DNA from: Escherichia coli
Lineage (GTDB): Bacteria > Pseudomonadota > Gammaproteobacteria > Enterobacterales > Enterobacteriaceae
Length of the DNA stretch: 64,000 nucleotides
Assembly: GCF_003018255.1 (NCBI RefSeq)
Contig: NZ_CP027440.1
Reading direction: 5' to 3' (one strand)
Numbering within the stretch: position 1 is the first letter of the stretch; each line of letters begins with the position of its first letter. A program made the translations under genes and the position numbers. Below, piece after piece: positions 545 to 61,177 of the stretch. Under the pieces are notes generated by a model, which ran no database searches, was not told the origin of the DNA, and worked only from the letters and a program-made list of their open reading frames with translations.

Positions 545-2638
545 ATGAAAGCTACAGAAGCCCGCCTACTCGATTTTTTAAAACGTTCGCAGCAGTTTGT
601 TATTCCCATTTATCAACGGACTTATTCATGGACAGAACAACAATGTCGGCAACTTTGGGACGACATCATTCGTGCCGGAAAGCGTGACGATATATCAGCG
701 CATTTTATCGGTTCGGTTGTTTATATAGAGCAGGGATTGTATCAGGTTTCTGGTATTTCTCCGTTGCTGGTCATTGATGGTCAACAGCGGCTGACGACCG
801 CAATGTTGCTGATTGAGGCTTTATCACGCCATCTTGGCGAAGACGAAGTTTTTGATGGCTTTTCAGCAATGAAATTGCGTAATTATTATTTACTCAATCC
901 TTATGAGTCCGGCGAGAAAGGATTTAAATTACTGCTGACCGAGACTGATAAAGACAGTTTGCTGGCGTTAATAAAACAAAGACCAATGCCAGAAAACTAT
1001 TCCCATCGAATAATGGAAAACTTTACTTTCTTTGATGAACAAATTGCCAAACTCGGTGATGACTTGATCCCCTTATGTCGTGGGTTAGCAAAGTTATTAA
1101 TTGTCGATGTGGCGCTTAATCGTGGTCAGGATAATCCGCAACTGATTTTTGAAAGTATGAACTCCACCGGTAAGGCGTTAAGTCAGGCCGATCTGGTGCG
1201 CAATTTTATTCTGATGGGCCTCGAACCAGAGCATCAAACCCGGTTGTATGAAGATCACTGGCGTCCAATGGAAGTCGCTTTTGGTCAGCAAGGTTACAGC
1301 GAATATTTTGACAGCTTTATGCGTCATTATCTGACGGTAAAAACGGGGGAGATCCCTCGGACAGATGAAGTCTATGAGGCATTTAAACTCCATGCCCGCA
1401 GCCAGAGTGTTGCTGAAAAAGGCGTAGATCGGCTGGTTGAAGATATTCACATCTACGCGGAGTATTACTGTGCAATGGCATTGGGAAAAGAAAGTGACAA
1501 ATCGCTTGCTACGGCTTTTCAGGATTTGCGCGAGTTAAAGGTCGATGTGGCATATCCTTTCTTACTGGCGCTTTATCATGACTATAAAAATGGCGATTTG
1601 CCTCACGAAGATTTCCTGAGCATAATTCGTTTAATTGAATCTTATGTTTTCCGCCGTGCAGTATGTGCGATTCCGACGAATTCTCTTAACAAGACGTTTG
1701 CCACTTTTTATAAAGTCATTAATAAAGAAAAATATCTGGAAAGTATTCAGGTACATTTTCTGAATCTGCCTTCATATCGTCGTTTCCCCAACGATGATGA
1801 ATTTAAACGGGAATTAAAAGTTCGCGATCTCTATAACTTCCGTAGTCGCAGCTACTGGTTACGACGACTGGAAAACGATAAACGCAGAGAGCGCGTGGAA
1901 GAGTTTACGATTGAGCATATTATGCCGCAGAACGAAAATCTGTCGGCTAAATGGCGCGAAGAGTTGGGAAGCGACTGGCAGCGTGTGCATAAAGAATTGT
2001 TACATACGTTGGGGAATCTCACTTTAACGCGCTATAACTCCCGCTACAGTGACAGACCTTTCGCGGAAAAACGCGATATTGAAGACGGCTTTAAGCATAG
2101 CCCGCTTTATTTGAATATCGGTCTTGGACAGTGCGAAAAATGGGATGAAGCCGCCATTCACGCCCGAGCCGATCGTCTGGCCGATCTTGCGGTTCAGGTT
2201 TGGCAAGCGCCTGCTCTTCCTGAAGAGGTTTTAGCTGTTTATCGGGCGCAGCCGGAGAACAAAACCAGTTACAGCCTGAGTGATTATCCTTTTCTTGCTG
2301 ATGGTTCGCATAGCCGGGTGTTATTTGATCATCTTCGCGATGAAGTTATGCGCCTGGACGCAGGGATCACGCAGGAAGTATTGAAGCTCTATATTGCGTT
2401 TAAAGCTGAAACGAATTTTGTTGATGTTGTGCCGCAAAAAAGCCGACTGCGATTGTCGCTTAATATGCAGTTTCATGAACTGGTCGATCCGAAAGGTATT
2501 GCCAAAGATGTGACAAATGTTGGGCGATGGGGCAATGGCGATGTGGAAATTGGTTTCAGTGACCTCGCACAACTTCCTTACATTATGGGATTAATTCGTC
2601 AGGCATTTGAAAAACAGATGGAGAACGCGTTGGTATAA
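545..2638 (+). CDS. GmrSD-like DUF262 (ParB/Srx-like NTPase) + DUF1524 (His-Me finger nuclease) protein; candidate modification-dependent type IV restriction endonuclease, 697 aa
   Basis: N-terminal motifs IPIYQRTYSW and DGQQRLTT typical of DUF262; C-terminal EHIMPQN...H...GNLTLT...N resembles a DUF1524 His-Me nuclease motif; sits where K-12 has yjiT-mcrCB. Confidence 0.75.
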   Translation: MKATEARLLDFLKRSQQFVIPIYQRTYSWTEQQCRQLWDDIIRAGKRDDISAHFIGSVVYIEQGLYQVSGISPLLVIDGQQRLTTAMLLIEALSRHLGEDEVFDGFSAMKLRNYYLLNPYESGEKGFKLLLTETDKDSLLALIKQRPMPENYSHRIMENFTFFDEQIAKLGDDLIPLCRGLAKLLIVDVALNRGQDNPQLIFESMNSTGKALSQADLVRNFILMGLEPEHQTRLYEDHWRPMEVAFGQQGYSEYFDSFMRHYLTVKTGEIPRTDEVYEAFKLHARSQSVAEKGVDRLVEDIHIYAEYYCAMALGKESDKSLATAFQDLRELKVDVAYPFLLALYHDYKNGDLPHEDFLSIIRLIESYVFRRAVCAIPTNSLNKTFATFYKVINKEKYLESIQVHFLNLPSYRRFPNDDEFKRELKVRDLYNFRSRSYWLRRLENDKRRERVEEFTIEHIMPQNENLSAKWREELGSDWQRVHKELLHTLGNLTLTRYNSRYSDRPFAEKRDIEDGFKHSPLYLNIGLGQCEKWDEAAIHARADRLADLAVQVWQAPALPEEVLAVYRAQPENKTSYSLSDYPFLADGSHSRVLFDHLRDEVMRLDAGITQEVLKLYIAFKAETNFVDVVPQKSRLRLSLNMQFHELVDPKGIAKDVTNVGRWGNGDVEIGFSDLAQLPYIMGLIRQAFEKQMENALV

Positions 2639-2684
2639 CGTGGCGAATAATACCCGGTAGCACTGGCGCTACCGGGTCAATGTA

Positions 2685-3026
2685 TCAGGCGACTTTCTGT
2701 TTACCCGCAATCACCCCAATAAATTCCCGCACCTGCTTTTGTTTACGCGCCGACAGCTTGCACACCTGGCGCAGCGACTGCATTAGCTCGCTCTCTTCGG
2801 GGGCGGGTGGTTGGGCGGTGAGGACAATACAGCCTTCCATCACTTTGACAGCTATCGCCGTGCCGGTGGCAAAACCGGCGGCTTCCAGCCACTGACCTTT
2901 CAGGGTGATGGCGGGAATACGGCTGTAATCCGGGTAGCGACTCGCATAACTCACGGTTAATTGACGGTTATTTGCCGGGGAGACTTCTGCTTCGAACGGT
3001 TGTGCAATAGAATGCGTGTCAGTCAT
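2685..3026 (-). CDS. symE: SymE SOS-induced toxin (type I toxin-antitoxin, AbrB-fold RNase-like), 113 aa
   Basis: Translation from ATG at 3024-3026 ([52 protein letters not shown]...) matches SymE; AAGGA Shine-Dalgarno; the ORF-track N-terminal extension is probably not translated. Confidence 0.85.
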
Positions 3027-3097
3027 AACTGCTATTCCTTGAAAATAGTGATTGTGATGAGCGGTGCGGGTGTGTTGGCGCACATCCGCACCGCGCT
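3020..3097 (+). ncRNA. symR: SymR-like cis-antisense sRNA covering the symE start codon and 5' UTR (approximate ends)
   Basis: Plus-strand -10 TAGAAT at 3008-3013 with weak -35 TTCTGC; the start would fall a few nt inside symE, as described for SymR; a 14-bp stem-loop at 3062-3095 could be the 3' end. Boundaries are inferred. Confidence 0.4.
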
Positions 3098-3104
3098 AAA
3101 TACC

Positions 3105-3120
3105 TGGATATATCATCAGT
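3105..3120 (-). promoter_or_regulatory. Candidate LexA box in the symE promoter
   Basis: Minus strand reads CTGATGATATATCCAG, i.e. CTG-N10-CAG with an AT-rich core, about 80 nt upstream of the symE ATG; symE is a known SOS gene. Confidence 0.35.
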
Positions 3121-3197
3121 AAATACAGGGAAAGTCCAGCTAAAAATTAATGAAAATAAGATAGAAGTTAGCGTGAAATATAATTTTTGGTGATGTG

Positions 3198-3234
3198 AAT
3201 AAAGCGGCTATTGAGCCGCTTTATTGGTTTTATG
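3198..3234. terminator. Hairpin terminator between hsdS and the symE promoter
   Basis: Perfect 11-bp stem AATAAAGCGGC/GCCGCTTTATT with 6-nt loop, followed by GGTTTTA on the plus strand; 13 nt downstream of the hsdS stop on the minus strand. Confidence 0.5.
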
Positions 3235-3246
3235 AGGGCGAGAAAA

Positions 3247-4983
3247 TTAGTTTATCGCCGCGTTAGTCAGTGCGTCTGCAAGGTGCAGTTGGGTTTGTTG
3301 GGCGGTTTTTATACGAGTTTTAAGCTTATCGCATAGTTCATGAAGTAAACCTACTTGTGAAAATATTCTATATTGTTCAGTTAATGGTGGGCATGGGAAT
3401 GAATACAACATTACACTATTTGCTGATAGGTTGGGTTGTGCTGAGCCATTATCAAAGCGGTAAATCTGTGAGCGCCCAAATGGACTGGTTAAATAATTAT
3501 AAATATACCCTCCCATTTCTGTGATAAATGGTCTAATGATCATTAGTGATGAGGCAATAGCTCCTGTTTCATAGGGGGTTACAAAGGCAGTTTTACCAAA
3601 AGTTGCTCCTCGTAGGCAATAAACCAAATCACCTTTTTGAATTTTCCCACTTCTTAATTCATTAAATTTTCCTTCGGTTATAAAATTCATTTCTGTAACC
3701 GTAAGTGTACCATTTTTTTCTATATGTCCAGTATTGATCCAAGGAATACCTTGAGAAACATACTCATTTTTATTGGGATAATTACTTCCACGATCGCCAT
3801 TTATAAACTCTGATGTTAAACCAAATTTACACCACTCCCACCCTTCCGGCAGTTCAAACGGTTTTTCCTCATTGCTAATTGGCGGTAGTGGTTTTTGTTT
3901 TTTTATTTTCCCTTCTTTCACCAGTTGAGCTTTTTCCTGCGCAATTCGTTTGAGCAGTTCAGAGGCGGGTTCGTCATTCGGATCCTGCGGCACAAGTTTA
4001 CCCATTACGGCCAGTTGAAGAATGGTCTGTTTTAACGCATCCACGCTGGCTTCGGTGGTAAATAGGGTGTCGAAATGCTCGCTAATACGCGCCCAGTTTT
4101 CAGCCAGTTCCTCGGCGTTTTGGCTGTCTGTAAGCGTTCCCAACAGGGTTTCAACCAGTTGCTGATGTGCGTCCAGACTGGTCAGGGATTGCTGTTCCAG
4201 TTGGTCGCAGAGAACTGTAAGTTCTCTGATTTTTCTGACAATTTGTTGTTGTTCATTTATAGGCGGTAAAGCGATTATCTGTTGTTCCATTTTTTCTTTA
4301 GTCATATGGAGCATTGCAATACCGTTACCTTGCGATTTTATTTTATCTGTAATGGATAAAAGAAAATCATGTATAAAATATTTGTTTGAGTACTCTTCTG
4401 CAAATAAATTTAATTTCCATATATGGTAGTGATAAATTACTTTTTCTCCTGTCCAAATGAATGGCCCAAAAGATGCGGACCAAGCGTATATTAAATCACC
4501 ATTATTTATATATTTGTTTTCGTCTAATTGGAGGTCAGAGTAATACCACTCATTTGATGTGAATAGATTACCAACACGCAGCAAAGGAGTGCCTGTTTGA
4601 AGCATTTCATGTTTTTTATATGCTCGACCGTTAATAACCTCCATGAGATCTGCAACCCGCACCCACTCCCATCCCTCCGGCAATTCAAACGGCTTCTCTT
4701 CCTCGCTAATTCCTGGCAGTGGTTTTTGCTTTTTAATTTTACCTTGCTTCACCAGCTCTGCTTTTTCCGCAGCAATACGCTTCAGCAGCTCCGACGCCGG
4801 TTCATCATTCGGATCCTGCGGCACCAGTTTACCGCGCACCGCCAGTTCCAGAATCAGCTCACGCAATTTCTTAATGCCATACAAATCAATTTTACCGGAA
4901 CTGCCGCGCCCGGCGGTGGAACGGGTTTGCAACGCCGAGGTCCAGGTTTCCATATGATCAACGATCAGCTTTTCCACACTCAT
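3247..4983 (-). CDS. hsdS: Type I restriction-modification specificity subunit HsdS (578 aa)
   Basis: Two AT-rich variable domains separated by duplicated conserved segments (KLVPQDPNDEPASELLKRIA...KPFELPEGWEW twice); start overlaps the hsdM stop (TGATG). Confidence 0.85.
   Translation of the reverse strand: MSVEKLIVDHMETWTSALQTRSTAGRGSSGKIDLYGIKKLRELILELAVRGKLVPQDPNDEPASELLKRIAAEKAELVKQGKIKKQKPLPGISEEEKPFELPEGWEWVRVADLMEVINGRAYKKHEMLQTGTPLLRVGNLFTSNEWYYSDLQLDENKYINNGDLIYAWSASFGPFIWTGEKVIYHYHIWKLNLFAEEYSNKYFIHDFLLSITDKIKSQGNGIAMLHMTKEKMEQQIIALPPINEQQQIVRKIRELTVLCDQLEQQSLTSLDAHQQLVETLLGTLTDSQNAEELAENWARISEHFDTLFTTEASVDALKQTILQLAVMGKLVPQDPNDEPASELLKRIAQEKAQLVKEGKIKKQKPLPPISNEEKPFELPEGWEWCKFGLTSEFINGDRGSNYPNKNEYVSQGIPWINTGHIEKNGTLTVTEMNFITEGKFNELRSGKIQKGDLVYCLRGATFGKTAFVTPYETGAIASSLMIIRPFITEMGGYIYNYLTSPFGRSQIYRFDNGSAQPNLSANSVMLYSFPCPPLTEQYRIFSQVGLLHELCDKLKTRIKTAQQTQLHLADALTNAAIN
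3829..4032. repeat. hsdS internal direct repeat, copy B (central conserved region)
   Basis: About 200 bp, roughly 80-85% identical by eye to 4660-4863; encodes the second GKLVPQDPNDEPASELLKRIA...PFELPEGWEW segment. Confidence 0.7.
4660..4863. repeat. hsdS internal direct repeat, copy A (N-terminal conserved region)
   Basis: Direct repeat partner of 3829-4032 within the same gene. Confidence 0.7.
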
Positions 4984-6452
4984 CAGTTAACCTCCTTGCC
5001 AGACAGCGCAGCGCCAAGAATATCGCGCAGTTGATTACGCAGCGTCTGGATCTCCGCCTGCTGTTTTGCATACTGCGCTAACAGTTCGTCCGGGTCATGG
5101 CTGACGGTTTCCGCCTGATGTGGGTTTTTAATATCCAGATTGAAGTTACGCGCAATCACGTCATCAATGCTGACTTTCCACGCTTGCTCATTCTCGATGC
5201 GGCTGGCAAAACCATCGGCCTCGTTACCCCACCAGTCAATCTCCGCCTGAAACTCTTCGAACTTCATCGGCTTGGTTTTACTGTAATTTTTCACGCCCGC
5301 CGGATACGGATGCTCATAGAACCAAATCTCTTTGGTTGGCTGACCTTTGGTAAAAAACAACAGGTTGGTTTTAATGCCGGTATAGGGGTTAAACACACCA
5401 TTCGGTAAACGCACGATGGTATGCAGATTGCACTCTTCGGTAAGCAGCTTTTTGATTTTGGTTTTAACGCCTTCGCCAAATAGCGTGCCATCCGGCAATA
5501 CCACCGCCGCGCGACCGTTTTTCGCCAGTACTTCCACAATCAGTTGCAGAAACAGATCCGCTGTTTCGCGGGTTTGCATCTCTGCCGGAAAGTTCTTCTC
5601 AATACCGTCTTCTTCCGTGCCACCAAACGGCGGGTTGGTAACAATGACATCCAGTTGCTCATCCCAGGAGGAAAGCGGTTTGTTCAGGGTGTTGTCGTGA
5701 CGAATTTGTACAGGCACTTCAATGCCGTGCAGCAGCATATTGGTGGTCGCCAGCAGGTGCGGAAGCTGTTTTTTCTCGACACCGTGGATCTGTTGTTGCA
5801 GCGTCTGATGATCGGCGACGCTCTTCACGTATTTGTTCTTTACATGATCGAACGCGCAGGCAAGAAAACCGCCCGTACCGCAGGCCGGGTCCATAATGGA
5901 TTCGCCGAGTTTCGGATCAACGCGATCCACCATAAAGCGAGTGACGGCGCGTGGCGTATAGAATTCGCCAGCATTGCCCGCAGATTGCAGATCTTTAAGG
6001 ATCTGTTCGTAAATATCACCAAACAGATGGCGTTCGCTGGCGCTGGTAAAGTCAATTTCGTTCAGCTTGTTGATCACCTGGCGCAGTAGCGTACCGTTTT
6101 TCATATAGTTATAGGCATCGCTGAACGCCTGCTTCACCACGTAGCCGCGTGGGTTTTTATCGATAGGCGCAGTGAGGTTTTTCAACGCCGGGAACAGATC
6201 ATCATTAACGAATTCCAGCAGGGAATCACCGGTAATGCCCTGAGCGTTTGCGGCCCAACTGCGCCATAAATAACGCTGTGGGATCGGATATTGATAGTTA
6301 TCCTGCTCCAGTTCCAGCGCCTCTTCCTGGGCATCGAAGATTTTCAAAAACAGCAGCCAGGAGAGCTGACCGAGACGCTGCGCATCGCCATCCACACCGG
6401 CATCTTTGCGCATAATATCTTGTAATGATTTGATTACTGAACTGATAGACAT
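4983..6452 (-). CDS. hsdM: Type I restriction-modification N6-adenine DNA methyltransferase HsdM
   Basis: SAM-binding motif DPACGTGGFL and catalytic NPPFGG present. Start chosen at ATG 6450-6452 (MSISSVIK...); in-frame alternative ATGs at 6464 and 6488 (longest ORF 4983-6488). Confidence 0.85.
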   Translation of the reverse strand: MSISSVIKSLQDIMRKDAGVDGDAQRLGQLSWLLFLKIFDAQEEALELEQDNYQYPIPQRYLWRSWAANAQGITGDSLLEFVNDDLFPALKNLTAPIDKNPRGYVVKQAFSDAYNYMKNGTLLRQVINKLNEIDFTSASERHLFGDIYEQILKDLQSAGNAGEFYTPRAVTRFMVDRVDPKLGESIMDPACGTGGFLACAFDHVKNKYVKSVADHQTLQQQIHGVEKKQLPHLLATTNMLLHGIEVPVQIRHDNTLNKPLSSWDEQLDVIVTNPPFGGTEEDGIEKNFPAEMQTRETADLFLQLIVEVLAKNGRAAVVLPDGTLFGEGVKTKIKKLLTEECNLHTIVRLPNGVFNPYTGIKTNLLFFTKGQPTKEIWFYEHPYPAGVKNYSKTKPMKFEEFQAEIDWWGNEADGFASRIENEQAWKVSIDDVIARNFNLDIKNPHQAETVSHDPDELLAQYAKQQAEIQTLRNQLRDILGAALSGKEVN

Positions 6453-42450: not shown

Positions 42451-42667
42451 GCCGGATAAGGCGTTCACGCCGCATCCGGCAGTTGGCGCACAATGCCTGA
42501 TGCGACGCTTGACGCGTCTTATCATGCCTACAAGTCTGTGCCGAACCGTAGGCCGGATAAGGCGTTCACGCCGCATCCGGCAGCTGGCGCACAATGCCTG
42601 ATGCGACGCTTGACGCATCTTATCATGCCTACAGGTCTGTGCCGATCCGTAGGCCGTATCCGGCATG
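42447..42667. repeat. BIME-type tandem array: two ~100-bp units (each carrying two REP palindromes) plus a partial third unit
   Basis: Units 42447-42547 and 42548-42645 are near-identical (GTAGGCCGGATAAGGCGTTCACGCCGCATCCGGCAG...TGCCTGATGCGACGCTTGACGC...) followed by GTAGGCCGTATCCGGCATG. Confidence 0.65.
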
Positions 42668-54210: not shown

Positions 54211-55443
54211 ATGTCGTCATTTGATTACCTGAAAACTGCCATCAAGCAACAGGGCTGCACGCTACAGCAGGTCGCTGATGCCAGCGGTATGACCAAAGGG
54301 TATTTAAGCCAGTTACTGAATGCCAAAATTAAAAGCCCCAGCGCGCAAAAGCTGGAGGCGTTGCACCGTTTTTTGGGGCTTGAATTTCCCCGACAGAAGA
54401 AAACCATTGGTGTCGTATTCGGTAAGTTCTACCCGCTGCATACCGGACATATCTACCTTATCCAGCGCGCCTGTAGCCAGGTTGACGAGCTGCATATCAT
54501 TATGGGCTTTGACGATACCCGCGACCGCGCGTTGTTCGAAGACAGCGCCATGTCGCAGCAGCCCACGGTGCCGGATCGTCTGCGCTGGTTATTGCAAACC
54601 TTTAAATATCAGAAAAATATCCGTATTCATGCTTTCAATGAAGAGGGCATGGAGCCATATCCGCACGGCTGGGATGTATGGAGCAACGGCATCAAAAAGT
54701 TTATGGCTGAAAAGGGGATCCAGCCGGACCTGATCTACACCTCGGAAGAAGCCGATGCGCCACAGTATATGGAACATCTGGGGATCGAAACGGTGCTGGT
54801 CGATCCGAAACGCACCTTTATGAGTATCAGCGGTGCGCAGATCCGCGAAAACCCGTTCCGCTACTGGGAATATATCCCCACTGAAGTGAAGCCGTTTTTT
54901 GTGCGTACCGTGGCGATCCTTGGCGGCGAGTCGAGCGGTAAATCCACCCTGGTAAACAAACTTGCCAATATCTTCAATACCACCAGTGCGTGGGAATATG
55001 GTCGCGATTATGTCTTTTCACACCTCGGCGGTGATGAGATCGCATTGCAGTATTCCGACTACGATAAAATCGCGCTGGGACACGCACAATACATTGATTT
55101 TGCAGTGAAATATGCCAATAAAGTGGCGTTTATCGACACTGATTTTGTCACTACCCAGGCGTTCTGCAAAAAGTACGAAGGGCGGGAGCATCCGTTCGTG
55201 CAGGCGCTGATCGATGAATACCGTTTTGATCTGGTTATCTTGCTGGAGAACAACACCCCTTGGGTGGCGGATGGTTTACGCAGCCTCGGCAGTTCGGTGG
55301 ATCGCAAAGAGTTCCAGAACTTGCTGGTGGAGATGCTGGAAGAGAACAATATCGAATTTGTGCGGGTTGAAGAAGACGATTATGACAGCCGTTTCCTGCG
55401 CTGCGTGGAGCTGGTGCGGGAGATGATGGGGGAGCAAAGATAA
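54211..55443 (+). CDS. nadR: Trifunctional NAD biosynthesis/regulator protein NadR
   Basis: MSSFDYLKTAIKQQGCTLQQVADASGMTKGYLSQLLN (HTH), NMN adenylyltransferase domain (GKFYPLHTGH) and kinase P-loop (GGESSGKST). Confidence 0.95.
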   Translation: MSSFDYLKTAIKQQGCTLQQVADASGMTKGYLSQLLNAKIKSPSAQKLEALHRFLGLEFPRQKKTIGVVFGKFYPLHTGHIYLIQRACSQVDELHIIMGFDDTRDRALFEDSAMSQQPTVPDRLRWLLQTFKYQKNIRIHAFNEEGMEPYPHGWDVWSNGIKKFMAEKGIQPDLIYTSEEADAPQYMEHLGIETVLVDPKRTFMSISGAQIRENPFRYWEYIPTEVKPFFVRTVAILGGESSGKSTLVNKLANIFNTTSAWEYGRDYVFSHLGGDEIALQYSDYDKIALGHAQYIDFAVKYANKVAFIDTDFVTTQAFCKKYEGREHPFVQALIDEYRFDLVILLENNTPWVADGLRSLGSSVDRKEFQNLLVEMLEENNIEFVRVEEDDYDSRFLRCVELVREMMGEQR

Positions 55444-55485
55444 TCATCTTTATAAGATGTTGAGTGGGATTACTGATTCAAAAGT

Positions 55486-55518
55486 GTACTTAGTACTCCA
55501 TTTTGGTGTACAATGTAC
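55486..55518. promoter_or_regulatory. Two palindromic operator-like sites overlapping the putative toxin-antitoxin promoter
   Basis: GTACTTAGTAC (55486-55496) and GTACAATGTAC (55508-55518), perfect 5-1-5 inverted repeats 22 bp apart centre to centre; TACAAT (55509-55514) is a candidate -10. Confidence 0.4.
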
Positions 55519-55534
55519 CTTCCAGGGAGGGGTA

Positions 55535-55867
55535 ATGGGTAAGGCGATAATATTTATAGAGACGCCAATGTTTACGCGTCAGATCAAGCAGATTGCAACC
55601 GATGATGAATTAAAGGAATTACAAAAAGAACTCATCGGAACTCCCGATAAAGGTGATCTCATTCAGCAGACTGGTGGATTGCGTAAAGTCCGAATGGCTG
55701 CGGGTTCACAGGGAAAAAGTGGCAGTGTCAGAATAATTTACTTTCTGGCGACGGAAGAGATTATTTATTTGATTATGGCCTATCCGAAAAATGCCAAAGA
55801 TAGTCTGACAGATACGGAAAAAGCTCAACTAAAGAAGTTGACGAAACTGCTCAAAGGCGAGATATAA
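55535..55867 (+). CDS. RelE/ParE-superfamily toxin (HigB-/Gp49-like 'addiction module killer'), 110 aa
   Basis: ATG at 55535 preceded by GGGAGGGG; MGKAIIFIETPMFTRQIKQI...GGLRKVRMAAGSQGKSGSVRIIYFLATEEIIYLIMAYPKNAKDSL resembles RelE/HigB-type toxins; toxin-first gene order. Confidence 0.6.
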   Translation: MGKAIIFIETPMFTRQIKQIATDDELKELQKELIGTPDKGDLIQQTGGLRKVRMAAGSQGKSGSVRIIYFLATEEIIYLIMAYPKNAKDSLTDTEKAQLKKLTKLLKGEI

Positions 55868-55868
55868 A

Positions 55869-56153
55869 ATGAGTTTTTTTGATGAGTTGAAAACCTCTCT
55901 GGAAGAGGCTGTCGAGATTAAACAAGGTTTAAAAGAACCTGCACGGGTGACCCGCTACGAAATTGCGGATGTTAAAGCTATTCGTGAGCAACTCAACGTT
56001 TCGCAAAGTGAGATGGCAAAAGCTCTGGGAACCAGTGTGGATACCATTAAAAGCTGGGAATCGAAGCGAAGAAATCCTACGGGATTGGCTGCAAAAGTAC
56101 TTGCCACAATTAAAGAAAATCCTGACTTTTTCCGGGAACTTGCCTCCCATTAA
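55869..56153 (+). CDS. XRE-family HTH antitoxin (HigA-like), 94 aa
   Basis: ATG 1 nt after the toxin stop; HTH segment QSEMAKALGTSVDTIKSWESKRRNP. Confidence 0.6.
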   Translation: MSFFDELKTSLEEAVEIKQGLKEPARVTRYEIADVKAIREQLNVSQSEMAKALGTSVDTIKSWESKRRNPTGLAAKVLATIKENPDFFRELASH

Positions 56154-56166
56154 TCATTTAACTAAT

Positions 56167-56196
56167 ACCGGATGCGATGCTGGCGCGCCGCATCCG
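56167..56196. repeat. REP element
   Basis: CCGGATGCGATGCTGGCGCGCCGCATCCGG palindrome between the antitoxin gene and the ettA 3' end. Confidence 0.5.
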
Positions 56197-56208
56197 GCAT
56201 TTTACGCA

Positions 56209-57876
56209 TTACTTCGCAATACGCTTGTACTTGATACGCTTCGGCTCCAGCGCGTCTGCGCCCAGCGTGCGTTTCTTGTACTCTTCGTACTCGGTAAAGT
56301 TACCTTCGAAGAACTCAACTTTACCCTCATCCTGGTAATCCAGGATGTGCGTGGCGATACGGTCGAGGAACCAACGGTCGTGCGAGATAACCATCGCGCA
56401 GCCCGGGAACTCCAGCAGGGCGTTTTCCAGCGCGCGCAGGGTTTCGATATCCAGGTCGTTGGTTGGTTCGTCGAGCAGCAGCATGTTGCCGCCAACTTGC
56501 AGCAACTTCGCCAGATGCAGACGACCGCGCTCACCGCCGGAGAGTTCGCCAACGCGTTTACCCTGATCAACCCCTTTAAAGTTAAAGCGGCCAACGTAGG
56601 CGCGGCTTGGCATCTCGGTGTTGCCGATTTTCATGATATCCAGCCCGCCGGAAACTTCTTCCCAAACGGTTTTGCTGTTATCCATTGAGTCACGGAACTG
56701 ATCAACCGATGCCAGTTTCACCGTTTCACCCAAAGTGATGGTGCCGCTGTCCGGCTGTTCCTGACCAGAGATCATACGGAACAGCGTCGATTTACCCGCA
56801 CCGTTCGGACCGATGATCCCGACGATCGCCCCTTTCGGGATCGAGAAACTCAGGGAGTCAATCAGCAGACGATCGCCATAGGATTTACGCAGATTGCTGA
56901 CTTCCAGCACTTTGTCGCCCAGACGCGGTCCAGGTGGAATAAACAGTTCGTTGGTTTCGTTACGTTTCTGATATTCGGTGCTGTTCAGTTCTTCAAAGCG
57001 CGCCAGACGTGCTTTACCTTTCGACTGACGGCCTTTAGTACCTTGACGTACCCACTCCAGCTCTTTCTCAATCGACTTACGACGCGCAGCTTCTTGTGAA
57101 GCTTCCTGCGCCAGACGCTGATCTTTCTGCTCCAGCCAGGAGGAGTAGTTACCTTCCCACGGAATACCTTCACCGCGGTCCAGTTCGAGGATCCAGCCCG
57201 CAACGTTATCGAGGAAGTAACGGTCGTGGGTAATCGCCACAACGGTGCCTTCGAAGTCGTGCAGGAAGCGTTCCAGCCAGGCCACGGATTCGGCATCCAG
57301 GTGGTTGGTCGGTTCGTCGAGCAGCAGCATGTCTGGTTTTTCCAGCAGCAGGCGGCACAACGCCACGCGACGACGCTCACCACCGGAGAGGTTAGCGATT
57401 TTCGCGTCCCAATCCGGCAGACGCAGCGCATCCGCCGCACGCTCCAGCTGAACGTTCAGGTTGTGACCGTCGTGAGCCTGAATGATCTCTTCCAGACGGC
57501 CCTGTTCAGCGGCCAGTTTGTCAAAATCGGCATCCGGATCGGCGTACAGTGCATACACTTCATCCAGGCGTTTCAGGGCGTTAACCACTTCAGAAACCGC
57601 TTCTTCAATGGACTCACGCACGGTGTGTTCCGGGTTCAACTGCGGTTCCTGCGGCAGATAACCAATCTTGATATCCGGTTGCGGACGCGCTTCGCCTTCG
57701 ATGTCTTTATCAATGCCCGCCATAATGCGCAGCAGGGTGGACTTACCCGCGCCGTTCAGACCCAGGACACCAATTTTTGCCCCAGGGAAGAAACTCAGAG
57801 AGATGTTTTTCAAAATATGACGTTTCGGCGGAACAACTTTGCCGACACGATGCATGGTATAAACGAATTGAGCCAC
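56209..57876 (-). CDS. ettA: Energy-dependent translational throttle protein EttA (YjjK), ABC-F ATPase
   Basis: 555 aa with two ABC cassettes (GLNGAGKST, GPNGAGKST); GTG start preceded by GAGG. Confidence 0.95.
   Translation of the reverse strand: MAQFVYTMHRVGKVVPPKRHILKNISLSFFPGAKIGVLGLNGAGKSTLLRIMAGIDKDIEGEARPQPDIKIGYLPQEPQLNPEHTVRESIEEAVSEVVNALKRLDEVYALYADPDADFDKLAAEQGRLEEIIQAHDGHNLNVQLERAADALRLPDWDAKIANLSGGERRRVALCRLLLEKPDMLLLDEPTNHLDAESVAWLERFLHDFEGTVVAITHDRYFLDNVAGWILELDRGEGIPWEGNYSSWLEQKDQRLAQEASQEAARRKSIEKELEWVRQGTKGRQSKGKARLARFEELNSTEYQKRNETNELFIPPGPRLGDKVLEVSNLRKSYGDRLLIDSLSFSIPKGAIVGIIGPNGAGKSTLFRMISGQEQPDSGTITLGETVKLASVDQFRDSMDNSKTVWEEVSGGLDIMKIGNTEMPSRAYVGRFNFKGVDQGKRVGELSGGERGRLHLAKLLQVGGNMLLLDEPTNDLDIETLRALENALLEFPGCAMVISHDRWFLDRIATHILDYQDEGKVEFFEGNFTEYEEYKKRTLGADALEPKRIKYKRIAK

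Positions 57877-60570: not shown

Positions 60571-61177
<607 letters not shown>

Follow-up and report, generated by a model that had tools for sequence, protein, structure and literature searches.

A probable HigB2/HigA2-type toxin-antitoxin operon at the nadR-ettA junction of Escherichia coli, and its apparent decay in other strains

The window analysed here is a stretch of 64,000 nucleotides of Escherichia coli DNA (contig NZ_CP027440.1, assembly GCF_003018255.1). Its nadR-ettA junction holds a HigB2-like toxin gene and the antitoxin gene nadS, which very probably form an intact chromosomal type II toxin-antitoxin (TA) operon of the HigB2/HigA2 kind, gained horizontally long ago and since subject to stepwise decay (Table 1). 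The gap between the stop codons of nadR (55443) and ettA (56209, minus strand) is exactly 55444-56208. Within it the two open reading frames (ORFs) lie on the same strand with a single nucleotide between them (TAA-A-ATG), and the layout of 110 amino acids, 94 amino acids and a 1-nt gap is also found in most of 64 homologous loci. Each ORF has strong homologues, so both are taken to be real genes and not chance reading frames. A mechanical ORF list gives the toxin as 136 amino acids from an ATG at 55457. This reading was rejected because the homologues have 110 amino acids, a Shine-Dalgarno sequence precedes position 55535, and the 26 additional codons would run across the operators; RefSeq and the Prokaryotic Genome Annotation Pipeline (PGAP) also use the 110-residue form. 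The region is 100% identical to that of E. coli JNE23-011, where PGAP names the toxin "type II toxin-antitoxin system RelE/ParE family toxin" (WP_000513550.1) and its partner "NadS family protein". The RefSeq annotation of both genes is already correct.

Table 1. Features in and around the interval between nadR and ettA. Positions are those of the window.
Feature	Position	Strand	Basis
nadR, left flank (context)	54211..55443	+	gene list and annotation
Operator-like repeat O1, GTGTACTTAGTAC, holding the palindrome GTAC-N3-GTAC, at the -35 position	55484..55496	+	direct repeat, conservation
Operator-like repeat O2, GTGTACAATGTAC, overlapping the -10-like TACAAT (55509-55514)	55506..55518	+	direct repeat, conservation
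Shine-Dalgarno sequence GGAGG of the toxin gene	55526..55530	+	read from sequence
higB2-like toxin gene, 110 aa, WP_000513550.1	55535..55867	+	PF06296, HigB-2 structures, catalytic residues, model
higA2-like antitoxin gene nadS, 94 aa	55869..56153	+	NF041265, HTH_3, HigA-2 structures
REP-like palindromic hairpin, between convergent nadS and ettA	56168..56197	.	folding and K-12 homology
ettA (yjjK), right flank, convergent (context)	56209..57876	-	gene list and annotation

The toxin matches the Pfam family PF06296 (E 5.9e-10), which bears the Pfam name "RelE", was formerly DUF1044, and is also precomputed on close homologues of the toxin. A review of the superfamily describes PF06296 as the HigB2 family, with the toxin gene first and ribosome-dependent degradation of mRNA (PMC11980606). 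Among solved structures only HigB-2 of Vibrio cholerae was matched (E 8e-17, residues 6-102). The activity of the V. cholerae protein (VcHigB2) needs Arg51, Arg64, Tyr82 and Lys84 (Hadzi et al., PMC5416850). In the alignment these four residues fall on R53, R66, Y83 and K85 of the toxin, and none of the four varies among 20 homologues drawn from different genera. Four of the carrier genomes that were fetched (the window, JNE23-011, UM146 and Z1323HEC0355) encode the same toxin protein. The gene of a fifth carrier, Eco-15, differs by 7 nt, two of the changes being non-synonymous (2 of 110 residues), and in each of the 40 carrier genomes sampled the annotation shows the toxin as an ordinary coding sequence. 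NCBIfam offered no model for the toxin; its sole match there, Crn1, reached 16.9 bits where the cutoff is 125 and is noise. Residues ~15-96 show a sub-threshold likeness to CARF/Crn1 ring nucleases (NCBIfam E 0.004; PADLOC E 0.0025-0.0047; SSO2081 in the Protein Data Bank, E 0.14), and the toxin model gives low-ranked Foldseek matches to the CARF-RelE protein Cami1. These similarities are probably noise or reflect the common RelE-like fold.

NadS matches the NCBIfam model NF041265 "NadS" over its full length (residues 1-94; 182.5 bits, cutoff 60) and the Pfam domain HTH_3 at residues 35-79 (E 6e-10). Among solved structures it is closest to HigA-2 (E 9e-7, residues 33-92). The protein can be divided into a predicted toxin-binding segment (residues ~1-32) and an XRE helix-turn-helix (HTH) domain (residues ~33-94). 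In V. cholerae the disordered N-terminus of HigA2 (VcHigA2) folds on the toxin into a helix (residues 3-22) and a strand (28-37) (PMC5416850). The N-terminus of NadS has no detectable sequence match to that of VcHigA2.

Structure prediction was carried out with AlphaFold on a toxin-linker-antitoxin fusion with a naturally paired alignment, NadS alone serving as the control. The mean predicted local distance difference test score (pLDDT) of the fusion model is 77, with the linker below 40 and the toxin part mostly at 73-92. The toxin part superposes on HigB2 of the HigBA2 complex (5jaa_D) with a template modelling (TM) score of 0.85. The best Foldseek matches of the toxin model are HigB2 chains (TM 0.74-0.85), and the fold is RelE-like (BECR). 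In the fusion model NadS has a helix at residues 3-18 and a strand at 26-31, a block with pLDDT of 77-94. When NadS is modelled alone the same residues score 53-69, with 26-32 below 50, and the strand is absent. The models thus predict that the N-terminal segment of NadS folds only beside the toxin, in parallel with VcHigA2.

Upstream of the toxin gene, O1 and O2 are two copies of GTGTAC-N3-GTAC with a spacing of 22 nt. The sequence TACAAT lies inside O2, 21 nt ahead of the toxin start codon. In 57 of the 64 homologous operons, which range from Kosakonia to Pseudomonas, the palindrome GTAC-N3-GTAC lies no more than 100 nt upstream of the toxin gene; the background rate for these loci is 0.0008 per 100 nt. 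The footprinted operator of VcHigA2, TGTACGC-N5-GCGTACA, starts after the -35 element and runs over the -10 element (PMC11006873). A palindromic putative operator appears to overlap the operon's own predicted promoter, and NadS would repress its own synthesis by binding over the -10 element. Two variants of the upstream region were noted. The E. coli strain Z1323HEC0355 has a 1.1-kb gene annotated "integrase core domain", an insertion sequence (IS), between nadR and the toxin gene (1963-3063 of its locus; about 55475 in the window). The IS lies just upstream of O1, and both operators and the pair are intact. A sub-group of seven NadS loci, from Enterobacter, Lelliottia, Trabulsiella and relatives, has longer toxin ORFs (~123-174 amino acids as read), another C-terminal tail and another intergenic gap, and GTAC-N3-GTAC is absent upstream. 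Within the family, this sub-group may represent a separate regulatory variant.

The assignment to the HigB2/HigA2 kind follows from protein homology, the catalytic residues, the operon layout and the conserved upstream palindrome. The closest known system is HigB2/HigA2 of V. cholerae (VCA0468/0469; 5JAA, 5J9I, 8A0X), which shares the toxin-first order, the sizes (~110 and ~100 amino acids), the family PF06296, the catalytic Arg/Arg/Tyr/Lys set, an N-terminal neutralising helix-strand segment in the antitoxin (predicted here) and a C-terminal XRE HTH domain. The operator of VcHigA2 likewise has TGTAC/GTACA half-sites and reaches over the -10 element, but it is a single TGTACGC-N5-GCGTACA, whereas here GTAC-N3-GTAC occurs twice, 22 nt apart. 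The V. cholerae genes lie in the Vibrio superintegron, in contrast to the core-gene junction in E. coli. HigBA2 of the Acinetobacter baumannii plasmid pAB120 and the pairs on small enterobacterial plasmids belong to the same family, but the copy in the window is chromosomal, fixed at one site and without nearby replicon or mobilisation genes. HigBA of Rts1 and of K-12 (YgjNM) are similar in that the toxin gene comes first, the toxin would be a ribosome-dependent mRNase of the RelE superfamily, and the antitoxin has an HTH domain. Their families, PF05015 and PF09907, are not among the Pfam matches of the toxin, and the structural match of its model to HigBA of Proteus vulgaris (4mct) is weak (E 0.37, TM 0.42). 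E. coli RelBE differs in that its family, PF05016, is not matched, its genes come in the opposite order, and the antitoxin here is of the XRE type. With PF05015, PF09907 and PF05016 all unmatched, identity with classical HigBA or E. coli RelBE is ruled out.

An earlier note, made from the window alone, had placed two tightly coupled ORFs with a 1-nt gap between nadR and ettA, and the sizes that it gave for them (110 and 94 amino acids) agree with those in Table 1. It had read them as a toxin-first TA module composed of a RelE-superfamily toxin and an XRE HTH protein. Both family matches and the gene order uphold that description: the Pfam search returned a toxin family, and the second ORF is matched by NF041265, HTH_3 and HigA-2. 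The further label of a HigBA-type module stands as regards the order of the genes; the pair is not the classical HigBA of Rts1 but is better described as HigB2/HigA2 (PF06296 and NadS).

Function of the family has been demonstrated in V. cholerae (PMC5416850), and HigBA2 of A. baumannii was shown to keep plasmids stable, to act as an RNase and to repress its own promoter (PMC5906591). By homology with these systems, the toxin would enter the ribosomal A site and cleave translated mRNA. NadS would act as a dimer whose disordered N-terminus folds into a helix and a strand on the toxin and so switches it off, while its HTH domains would repress the operon. A labile antitoxin that is not replenished would leave the toxin free.

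Downstream of nadS lies an element like the repetitive extragenic palindromic (REP) elements, as the earlier note had also recorded. The 30-nt hairpin has a folding energy of -20.9 kcal/mol (z = -3.55), and none of 200 shuffled sequences is as stable. Its right arm is identical or homologous to the final REP between nadR and ettA in K-12, at the same site. A search of Rfam with E up to 1 matched no family over 55300-56400. Further canonical REP copies are present in the window at 42451-42480, 42552-42581 and 60614-60643. In E. coli Z30 (NZ_CP066844.1, 982-1347 of its locus; about 56185 in the window) the IS3-family element IS1397 lies inside the REP-like hairpin, and the window sequence ending in CCGGATGCGATGCTGGC runs there into IS sequence. 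IS1397 targets the palindromes of REP elements and bacterial interspersed mosaic elements (BIMEs).

The distribution of the pair was determined in 5426 complete E. coli genomes. The toxin gene is present in 672 of these (12.4%, about one in eight), in every case on the chromosome, and the whole nadR-to-ettA query was matched in a single place in 673. K-12-type intergenic sequence is present in 3781 genomes (69.7%), and 809 genomes have no match to it. The accessory status claimed for the pair is thereby borne out, K-12 having only a scar. One E. coli record of 4.9 Mb among the plasmids of PLSDB (NZ_CP134663.1) contains a 99% identical copy of the locus; the record is almost certainly a wrongly labelled chromosome, and this lone high-identity "plasmid" match should be ignored. 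The carriers include known strains of phylogroup B2 such as UM146. Matches to Pfam RelE were reported to be absent from phylogroups A, C and B1 in a survey (PMC10790755). That absence fits the carriers seen, for example UM146. An mBio 2023 survey describes an antitoxin called "UNKW (6P)" that has a partner in 12% of isolates and is an orphan in the other 88%, which resembles the present counts. It is not equated with NadS here, as full-length NadS has a Pfam domain.

The K-12-type scar consists, in order, of the nadR stop codon, 3 bases, the final ~28 nt of the toxin reading frame, nadS from its start through 38 codons, and REP sequence. Over the shared segments these remnants are ~93-100% identical to the intact module. 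PGAP names the 55-residue scar ORF of K-12 "nadS", and a study by PIRT-seq gave the first evidence of its expression (PMC12350097). The statement that nadR and ettA are immediate neighbours in K-12 consequently does not hold strictly, as this truncated nadS is annotated between them in K-12-type genomes. The description of the pair as an insert relative to a clean K-12 junction fails on the same sequence: the 3781 genomes carry a scar of the same module.

The left junction of the scar is identical in K-12, NCTC10444, WP3-W18-ESBL-08 and Z30. The last of these combines the shared junction with a full-length nadS and is an intermediate allele. In the commonest scar allele, which includes that of an O6:K2:H1 strain, the ATG of nadS has become ATA and a 1-nt deletion shifts the frame, and PGAP flags the gene as partial. 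The scar of NCTC10444 has a 10-bp deletion, and the junction of GN04096 contains only REP sequence. Outside E. coli, a scan of species-representative genomes found nadR-nadS-ettA synteny only in Escherichia sp. MOD1-EC7003, which has lost the toxin by a different deletion with other junctions, ~90 nt of the toxin 3' end and a full-length nadS being kept. The alleles can be placed in a series that would begin with the intact pair of 12.4% of the genomes. The toxin would then be deleted with nadS still full length, nadS cut to its 5' half with REP sequence in place of the rest (the K-12 type), the start codon lost and the frame shifted, until no trace remains. The two independent deletions at one site, together with this graded series, mark the intact pair as the older state and the K-12 state as derived. 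What separates the window from K-12 is thus a loss on the K-12 side and not a gain here; acquisition at the nadR-ettA site probably predates the species, and the module is old at the site and in the course of being lost.

The junction is also a recurrent insertion site. In WP3-W18-ESBL-08 (2915-5291 of its locus) an island with DUF1471, SRPBCC, SDR and aldo/keto reductase genes cuts the nadS remnant, and in JSWP021 (2776-5144) IS26 and genes of an integrating-conjugative element directly follow nadR.

The GC content of the module is 41-43%, against 50-57% in the flanks. In ~60 other species (Kosakonia, Serratia, Pantoea, Photorhabdus, Rheinheimera and others) the pair occurs in unrelated contexts, often on contigs of 3-7 kb, and toxins ~80% identical to that of the window are encoded on 4-7 kb plasmids of Yersinia, Citrobacter, Hafnia, Shigella, Enterobacter and Klebsiella. 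Phage records gave only seven weak matches. The low GC content, the related toxins on small plasmids and the unrelated contexts elsewhere point to horizontal arrival: an ancestor of Escherichia probably gained the module at the nadR-ettA site, with repeated loss thereafter. The same three observations would suit a recent insertion of a mobile TA cassette into an empty nadR-ettA junction in the lineage of this strain, as would the E. coli junctions that are free of remnants and hold only REP sequence, such as that of GN04096. Against such an insertion stand the 3781 genomes in which the toxin 3' end and the nadS 5' end survive with one common junction, the full-length orphan nadS allele with that same junction, and the independent deletion in another species-level lineage of Escherichia. 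In addition, the locus has neither flanking repeats nor an integrase nor att-like sites. No transposase or integrase is present in this copy, in agreement with the earlier remark that no mobility gene accompanies the pair. The recent-insertion explanation is largely refuted by the remnants and is considered extremely improbable.

Orphan nadS genes, with the toxin absent or fragmentary, were also observed in Kosakonia, Buttiauxella, Cedecea (where the toxin is internally deleted), Trabulsiella, Reinekea and Rheinheimera. Their presence in six genera indicates that loss of the toxin with retention of the antitoxin recurs outside Escherichia.

Such orphans, whole or shortened, are still found in E. 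coli and several other genera, loss of the toxin is evidently tolerated, and the K-12 remnant is reported to be expressed (PMC12350097). It might be argued from this that the pair is not a working TA system, the toxin being inactive or silent and NadS a plain transcription factor, perhaps acting on the neighbouring NAD or translation genes. However, all four catalytic residues of the toxin are intact and invariant across genera, the protein is unchanged or nearly so in the carriers compared, and none of the 40 sampled annotations departs from an ordinary coding sequence. The predicted operators sit in the operon's own promoter, and the majority scar allele of nadS has no start codon. No evidence of a link between NadS and NAD was found, and the name appears to reflect only the position beside nadR. 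This explanation is accordingly regarded as quite unlikely, and an operon of the HigB2/HigA2 kind is preferred.

The neutralising segment predicted for NadS (helix 3-18, strand 26-31) is kept whole in the 55-residue K-12 protein, and the DNA-binding domain is lost. The first 38 codons of the K-12 ORF and the ~28 nt of toxin 3' end before it are homologous to the pair at the same locus; the K-12 form differs in lacking the toxin, promoter, operators and HTH domain, and its C-terminal 17 residues are read from the REP. The explanation offered for the K-12 "nadS" ORF is that an antitoxin has decayed there to a stub that would still bind the toxin. In V. cholerae, residues 3-22 of HigA2 suffice as a peptide to neutralise the toxin (PMC5416850), and the stub could in principle serve as a free-standing anti-addiction peptide against the ~80% identical HigB2-type toxins of small enterobacterial plasmids. 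This role is very unlikely because the majority allele is pseudogenised.

The chromosomal copy itself may defend against phage, counter addiction or act as a local stabiliser, or it may be a selfish remnant. A module acting in abortive infection or against addiction, and not purely selfish or stabilising, would be in keeping with the occurrence of toxins from the RelE/ParE superfamily in defence contexts (PMC11980606), with the possible cross-reaction of related toxins on small plasmids, and with the PHROGs families known for both proteins (phrog_5869, phrog_2104). Yet no PADLOC model was matched above noise: the toxin gave only the CARF matches already described, the antitoxin a generic HTH, and no defence system was assigned. 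The flanking genes are radA, nadR, ettA and slt, with no defence-island neighbours, and the phage matches are few and weak. Such a role is judged unlikely. It concerns what the module is for and not how it works, and is compatible with an intact HigB2/HigA2-type operon.

Several points weigh against reading the locus as such an operon. Identity to the V. cholerae proteins is only ~35% for the toxin, and is likewise low (~30%) for the HTH domain of the antitoxin. The N3 spacing of the half-sites is unlike the N5 of V. cholerae, which makes DNA binding by NadS a prediction. A consensus scan for promoters and terminators called no promoter at the TACAAT site, owing to the poor -35 element; its two promoter-like matches both lie inside the toxin ORF and are no more than occur in shuffled sequences. 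The AlphaFold comparison concerns confidence scores and secondary structure and not interface contacts. The recurrent loss of the toxin shows that the module is dispensable. Finally, no study of the nadR-ettA toxin/NadS locus was found in the literature.

The pair adds one more chromosomal TA system to the accessory genome of E. coli. The family is well understood structurally and biochemically, and the current understanding of TA systems is unchallenged. What the locus offers is a single core-genome junction that preserves what appears to be a graded decay, from the intact pair through an orphan antitoxin, a truncated antitoxin and a pseudogene to nothing, and this series would explain the origin of the enigmatic "nadS" ORF of K-12.

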